Source: Escherichia coli (lineage in GTDB: Bacteria; Pseudomonadota; Gammaproteobacteria; Enterobacterales; Enterobacteriaceae). Taken from it: 64,000 bases of DNA. Location: the NCBI RefSeq assembly GCF_003018255.1, contig NZ_CP027440.1; one strand, written 5' to 3'. This document shows, piece after piece, positions 16,679 through 17,082 of this stretch. How positions within the stretch are numbered: the first letter of the stretch is position 1; each line of letters starts with the position of its first letter. The notes beneath the pieces were generated by a model. The model saw only the letters and a program-made list of their open reading frames with translations. It had not been told where the DNA came from and made no database searches. The position numbers and the translations under genes were made by a program.

Positions 16679-17082
16679 TCCCTCATTTCTGGTGCAAAGT
16701 TGAACCGCTTTGCACTATGTATGTTCCCTGAATAGTTAATTATGTTCTGCAGAATATATTATGCGTAAATTAATCATTACGTACGATATATTGTTTTGGA
16801 ATAATTATATATCAGTTTAACGCTGAGAAATTATTCGGAATAATCAGAATATGTTAACGTATTTCCGTTATGTTTAATGACTTTTGTCAAATGATACCTT
16901 TTTAAATAAAAAGTCAGTGGATATTCTTTTCTGTACAGTGTTTTATCTTTGGCGGATCTTATAAATCCCTTATGAAAGTGCCAGGGACGCAATGAGCATA
17001 AAGGAATGATTATGGAATATGAGCATCAACCCAGTGGTGTCCGGCAGCCAGGGCAGGATACAGATGCCACTAAACGTCAGGA

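Follow-up and report, generated by a model that had tools for sequence, protein, structure and literature searches.

The spacer of 404-413 bp that separates uxuR from iraD in this Escherichia coli genome is very likely the normal uxuR-iraD region of E. coli strains with the second major haplotype, i.e. the CFT073/GimA type, in which a functional iraD would be controlled by P2, idlP and CsrA and which lacks a counterpart of the K-12 P1. yjiC is missing between the two genes because the strain carries this version of the locus. The arrangement is already documented and is ordinary natural allelic variation. In the following, the window is the whole stretch of 64,000 nucleotides that was analysed; the features assigned around the spacer are collected in Table 1, with window positions.

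Table 1. Features of the uxuR-hypT region, by window position
Feature	Position	Strand	Basis and remarks
uxuR	15905-16678	+	ORF, identity to K-12; conserved left flank of the variable segment
Terminator-like hairpin, TGGTGCAAAG...CTTTGCACTA	16690-16717	+	Terminator scan; just 3' of uxuR
AT-rich part of the spacer	16718-16828		About 110 bp, no convincing K-12 counterpart
Palindrome ATTATTC-G-GAATAAT	16830-16844		Alignment; candidate regulator-binding site/operator upstream of P2
Counterpart of the P2 -10 element, TATCTT (K-12 TATACT)	16944-16949	+	Alignment
Leader segment with counterparts of CsrA sites BS2-BS4	16980-17016	+	Matched to the footprints of PMC5574718
Counterpart of the DnaA box (-81 in K-12)	17011-17019	-	Bottom strand TATTCCATA, K-12 TTTTCCATA
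idlP-like leader ORF, 27 codons	17012-17095	+	TGA stop overlaps the iraD ATG (ATGA)
iraD, CFT073/GimA-type allele	17092-17475	+	Protein of 127 aa, 78% identical to that of K-12
Perfect 11-bp inverted repeat, AACGCGATACG / CGTATCGCGTT, 7-nt loop	17485-17513		Repeat search
GimA remnant, 3' end of ptnI/pptE (PTS enzyme I-like)	17523-17894	-	372-bp fragment
hypT (yjiE)	17901-18812	-	Right flank; last three codons within the variable segment

The window uxuR encodes 257 aa, ends with a TGA codon at 16676-16678 and is 96.9% identical to that of K-12; it is annotated under the same name in JNE23-011, a strain that is 100% identical over the region. iraD starts either at the ATG at 17092, as chosen by PGAP in JNE23-011, or at an upstream GTG at 17083, which would give 130 aa, so that the spacer measures 413 or 404 bp. 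With 35.8% G+C it is poorer in these bases than the window (49.3%). The short, AT-rich spacer described in the preliminary description is therefore real; the further claim that it is non-coding does not hold throughout, in that it contains the 27-codon idlP ORF. The same description placed yjiC between uxuR and iraD in K-12, and alignment with K-12 (MC1000) bears this out, the uxuR-iraD interval there being 1643 bp, not ~400 bp. In the extracted MC1000 locus the order is uxuR (5001-5774), yjiC (5915-6745, minus strand), a ytiC-like ORF, ytiD, idlP and iraD, which begins at 7418. The 831-bp yjiC of K-12 thus lies on the minus strand between uxuR and iraD, and its product matches PF10887 (DUF2686; YjfZ/YjiC). 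When K-12 YjiC was used to query all 64 kb of the window by tblastn, only noise was returned (best E = 2.3), and no ORF of the DUF2686 family is present between uxuR and iraD in the window strain.

Against K-12 the flanks of the region are 97% identical, on the left over 11251-16678, i.e. up to and including the stop codon of uxuR, and on the right from 17912, inside the last hypT codons, onward. Within the uxuR-hypT interval, by contrast, only 16829-17447 aligns, at 77.7% identity; upstream of 16829 the sole match to K-12 is one of 21 nt (16758-16778, E = 0.05; blastn throughout). Identity to K-12 is ~72% for the leader and ~82% (nt) for iraD, and dS is 0.79 for iraD compared with 0.14 for uxuR. 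The combination of 97% flanks with a diverged interior thus identifies the uxuR-hypT interval as a different haplotype, rather than as the K-12 locus minus yjiC, and the variable segment, 16679-17911, is a second, deeply diverged haplotype. A recent, strain-specific deletion that took yjiC out of an otherwise K-12-like locus would account for the absence of yjiC from the window and for a spacer 1.2 kb shorter than that of K-12, but it is scarcely credible, given the iraD dS value, the sharing of this arrangement by 511 complete genomes (CFT073 among them) and by four further Escherichia lineages at species level, and the fact that the uxuR terminator and the hypT terminus differ too. A simple deletion of yjiC is ruled out by the retained leader and iraD, which together are ~78% identical to K-12, compared with 97% for the flanks. 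As to the two ends of the segment, the terminator-like hairpin just 3' of uxuR is kept in the yjiC-less relatives and is absent from K-12, where a different hairpin occupies this position (alignment), and the hypT product ends in ...EIEPG* in the window and in ...EIVLS* in both K-12 and the GimA-positive strain EC28.

The second haplotype to which the segment belongs is that of the uropathogen CFT073, from which the window locus shows essentially no difference. CFT073 has the same gene order, uxuR-yjiD(iraD)-GimA remnant-yjiE(hypT), and the same 413-bp spacer, and is fully collinear with the window, with 8 differences in 1233 bp; its idlP peptide is identical, its IraD differs at 2 residues, and it has the same 342-bp ptnI/pptE remnant ORF. 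The study that described the locus (Homeier et al. 2010, PMC2878320) makes no mention of yjiC or of a shortened iraD upstream region.

The possibility that the segment had been imported from a B2 strain into a K-12-like background was considered and set aside, there being no sharp breakpoints at the segment in a 500-bp identity profile, in which, from 3 to 27 kb, the window resembles a B2-like isolate more than it does K-12. Likewise, a palindrome, TTCTGCAGAA, that occurs at both segment ends (16745 and 17886) was rejected as a boundary feature; such a repeat is expected by chance in 1.35 kb, and the right copy (17886) is accounted for by the GimA deletion junction described below. A search for RNA families over 16500-18000 gave only a sub-threshold snoRNA match (E = 0.29). 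Two other variable regions were seen in the same comparisons. The window, CFT073 and K-12 all have gntP (11394-12567), in place of which EC28 and isolate 127 have a 108-bp pseudogene remnant; this second presence/absence polymorphism lies 4 kb upstream of the uxuR-iraD variable segment. Over 27800-36700, downstream of yjiN in the rpn/DUF262/symE/hsd area, the window is no longer continuously collinear with either CFT073 or isolate 127, but matches them in short 94-96% blocks with gaps.

Among 5426 complete E. coli genomes, the window-type segment is present in 511 (~9.4%) and the K-12-type leader plus iraD in 4881 (~90%), with the yjiC segment found in 4880-4911 and ibeA, i.e. full GimA, in 247; judged from these overall counts, the data fit two mutually exclusive haplotypes. 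A third haplotype, resembling that of strain E69 and prompted by 37 genomes in an 80-90% identity band, was discarded, since a search with the E69 segment returned 511 plus 4881 genomes; none of the 5426 carries the E69-type segment. Strains with the CFT073-like, GimA-type haplotype belong mostly to B2 and ST117 (PMC2878320).

In K-12, iraD has transcription starts at -417 (P1) and -137 (P2) (bioRxiv 10.1101/2021.05.20.444958; PMC5574718). P1 is induced in late log and stationary phase and P2 is active in all growth phases, with ppGpp, DnaA and SspA acting on both (bioRxiv 10.1101/2021.05.20.444958). The preliminary description regarded yjiC as the host of one of the iraD promoters; this was mistaken, in that the yjiC start codon is at -673 and both transcription starts are within the 672-bp yjiC-iraD spacer, so that yjiC contains no iraD promoter. 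A consensus scan of K-12 gave TTGATG-16-TATATT at -451 to -424, which fits P1.

The window has no P1 homologue; its homology to K-12 starts at about -264 (16829), weakly from -332, and the equivalent of -417 is the uxuR stop codon. The AT-rich spacer part upstream of 16829 stands where K-12 has yjiC, P1, ytiC and the beginning of ytiD; it is shared, in conserved form, with E. whittamii, E1V33 and SCPM-O-B-8794. In the alignment neither ytiC nor ytiD has a counterpart in the window, the ytiD frame being interrupted. Of the K-12 locus, P1, ytiC, ytiD and yjiC are all missing in the window, and the spacer upstream of iraD is bounded by a divergent yjiC in K-12 (672 bp) and by a co-oriented uxuR in the window (413 bp). 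The suggestion that iraD regulation in this strain may differ from that in K-12 is reasonable with respect to P1 and ytiC/ytiD; what sets the strain apart from K-12 is a whole alternative haplotype, not a loss of yjiC specific to it.

The proximal promoter has a putative counterpart in the window, with the aligned P2 transcription start at 16956 (-136), albeit with a -10 element that has 4/6 matches to consensus and is weaker than the TATACT of K-12; P2 was called by the consensus promoter scan in neither haplotype. By alignment with K-12, iraD of the window haplotype is predicted to be transcribed from this P2 equivalent, starting near 16956. Published transcription start data for iraD in CFT073 or UTI89 were not found in the literature. 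If the distal P1, with its stationary-phase and ppGpp induction, is missing as the alignment indicates, growth-phase induction of iraD transcription is probably weaker, or otherwise arranged, than in K-12.

There may, however, be a substitute for P1. The palindrome at 16830-16844 has a core, TATTCGGAATA (16833-16843), that is kept in all seven Escherichia sequences despite 20-35% divergence in its surroundings, and it adjoins the position of a HusR site predicted in K-12 (PMC12844172). It yields promoter-like hexamers on both strands, those on the plus strand being TTAACG-16-AATAAT (16817-16844), and this could be a distal promoter within the AT-rich spacer, alternative to P1; the promoter scan as a whole returned 4 sites compared with 2.8 expected and so is not significant. 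Were such an alternative promoter present, growth-phase control could persist even with P1 gone. A 53-aa ORF on the minus strand (16831-16992) is spurious, because stop codons break its frame in E1V33, E. whittamii and SCPM-O-B-8794.

In K-12, translation of iraD is coupled to that of the 27-codon ORF27/idlP, which is repressed by CsrA bound at four sites, BS1-BS4 (Park et al. 2017, PMC5574718). The length and frame of idlP and its ATGA overlap with iraD are the same in 8/8 sequences compared, and the ribosome-binding/start region, -30 to +10, is invariant across the alignment. With the K-12 CsrA footprints taken as -112 to -103, -90 to -84 and -78/-77 (PMC5574718), the GGA motif is kept in the window counterparts of BS2 (16980-16989), BS3 (17002-17008), which doubles as the idlP Shine-Dalgarno sequence, and BS4 (17014-17016); at the position aligned with BS1 the window reads TTA instead of GGA. 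The counterpart of the DnaA box, defined at -81 in K-12 (bioRxiv 10.1101/2021.05.20.444958), has one more mismatch to consensus than the K-12 box. Overall, what is kept in sequence from the K-12 control region is the stretch around P2, GGA in each of BS2-BS4, idlP with its ATGA overlap, the -30 to +10 region and a DnaA-box-like sequence; what is changed is the missing BS1, the extra mismatch in the DnaA box and the TATCTT of P2. A distinctive RNA fold was not found for the leader, with folding energies no better than those of shuffled sequences (z = +0.73 and -0.20), and a consensus fold has little covariation (3/30 pairs). A leader that carries the BS2-BS4 motifs together with an idlP whose stop overlaps the iraD start would couple IraD synthesis to idlP and leave it repressed by CsrA; we infer that CsrA binds the window leader and that translational control is K-12-like.

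The IraD protein of the window is most likely functional as an anti-adaptor. It matches NF010728, the curated IraD equivalog model of NCBIfam, with 293.9 bits (cut-off 196) and end to end over the 127-position profile, and the K-12-type model NF010726 with 231.3 bits (cut-off 198). The family (NCBIfam PRK14128 models) has a gp25/TssE-like fold (PF04965), and the window protein likewise matches Pfam GPW_gp25. Its differences from the 130-aa K-12 protein cluster in residues 1-60 and in the C-terminal tail; iraD dN/dS between window and K-12 is 0.12 for the gene as a whole and falls to 0.02 in codons 61-116. The residues that contact RssB in the crystal structure (W64, R67, Q68, R70, S71, F75, Q84 and the EPRI motif; PMC6546054), including the recognition triad W64/R67/R70, are all invariant between the window and K-12 proteins, so that the window IraD should still bind RssB and protect RpoS from RssB/ClpXP. 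Divergence between K-12 IraD and CFT073 YjiD (74.6% identity) has been noted before, in a study whose sigma-S reporter screen also yielded CFT073 yjiD clones (Hryckowian et al. 2014, PMC4045071). Database comparisons also returned an IraD 100% identical to that of K-12, together with the end of hypT, on a 605-bp contig, NZ_ABFU01000118.1, assigned to 'Bacillus coahuilensis m4-4'; this is almost certainly E. coli K-12 contamination in a Bacillus assembly.

Downstream of iraD the window has what is left of a GimA island. The yjiD-yjiE locus is reported to exist in three states, GimA-positive, with a 342-bp 'GimA remnant', and GimA-negative, the remnant being present in CFT073, 536, F11 and ST117 (Homeier et al. 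2010, PMC2878320). The window ORF at 17523-17864 (342 bp, 113 aa) is this remnant; it covers only positions 180-290 of the 293 of the Pfam PEP-utilizers_C profile and is collinear with the full 2382-bp ptnI of GimA-positive EC28. The 11-bp inverted repeat lies between the convergent iraD and ptnI remnant and is probably a shared bidirectional terminator. In EC28 the GimA island follows the same iraD allele, with full ptsP/ptnI first, then dhaL, dhaK, gldA and further genes as far as gcl, dhaR, ibeA and nhaC; hypT comes next. The window follows EC28 ptnI as far as ...GATTTTCTGCAG (17896); the next 20 nt are a diverged version (12/20 identical) of the hypT-proximal GimA end, which in EC28 reads ...GTTTTGCAG|AATAATGTCAGCTAAGCACA. 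At the junction, ptnI and the hypT-proximal GimA end share a TTTT(C)TGCAG microhomology, which suggests that about 20 kb of GimA was lost by microhomology-mediated deletion, the site of which the ptnI remnant would mark.

Counterparts of the window haplotype occur in other Escherichia. A cross-species scan of one genome per species gave four lineages with a yjiC-less spacer of 410-420 bp, namely E. whittamii, Escherichia sp. E1V33, E69 and 'E. coli' SCPM-O-B-8794, the IraD proteins of which are 86-94% identical (aa) to the window allele. E. albertii NBRC 107761 (extracted locus 4528-9449) has a yjiC homologue (62% aa identity), iraD and then full ptnI and dhaL; it thus joins features that are mutually exclusive in E. 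coli, i.e. yjiC upstream and GimA genes downstream of iraD. The E. albertii iraD leader is the one closest to that of K-12 (81.8%), and K-12 iraD is about equally far (77-82% nt) from all other alleles. The iraD dS of 0.79, compared with 0.14 for uxuR, and these cross-species identities together imply that the haplotypes are much older than the diversification of E. coli.

It may be, with a probability somewhat below even, that the yjiC-less state is the older resident in E. coli and the cryptic clades, and that the K-12 type was imported into most E. coli by recombination from a distant Escherichia-like donor. The four lineages with a short spacer and window-like IraD, the equidistance of K-12 iraD from every other allele, and the near restriction of the GimA-type locus to phylogroup B2, called ancestral, and ST117 (PMC2878320) are in keeping with such a history, whereas the E. 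albertii locus, with a yjiC homologue at the same place, GimA genes and the most K-12-like leader, is not. The presence of yjiC at the same site in E. albertii makes yjiC there old as well, so that an ancient polymorphism or repeated loss fits equally; moreover, single genomes represent each species. Were the yjiC-less state ancestral, K-12, and not the window strain, would be the odd one out.

Whichever state is older, there are hints that the segment may have been exchanged between species. Over 16700-17900 the window is 95-98.5% identical to E1V33 and E. whittamii, compared with 85-93% in the neighbouring uxuR and hypT. In our estimate it is nearly an even prospect that E. coli and cryptic-clade Escherichia exchanged the window-type segment recently, instead of both inheriting it vertically. 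A recent exchange is favoured by the identity of the leader plus iraD to E. whittamii/E1V33 (96-98.6%), which exceeds that of uxuR (88%) and iadA (91-92%), and by the ptnI remnant that E1V33 has between iraD and hypT, arranged as it is in the window; yet the contrast is modest, with uxuB also at 94-95%, and strong constraint on the leader could contribute to a difference measured on single genomes. Any direction or timing assigned to such interspecies exchange is an inference from the sequence comparisons.

Knowledge of iraD regulation (P1/P2, ppGpp, DnaA, SspA, CsrA/idlP) comes nearly all from K-12. The version of the locus without the distal promoter region is present in about 1 in 11 complete E. 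coli genomes, including that of CFT073 and those of GimA-positive meningitis and avian strains; K-12 results on growth-phase control of IraD should therefore be tested before they are transferred to such strains. A broader proposal, which we consider rather doubtful, is that ~9% of E. coli have lost the P1-driven induction of IraD by ppGpp and stationary phase, and that the two haplotypes are an old trans-species polymorphism still exchanged with the cryptic clades. If true, the stabilisation of RpoS on entry into stationary phase would be wired differently in these strains than in K-12, with other anti-adaptors, e.g. IraL, taking over.
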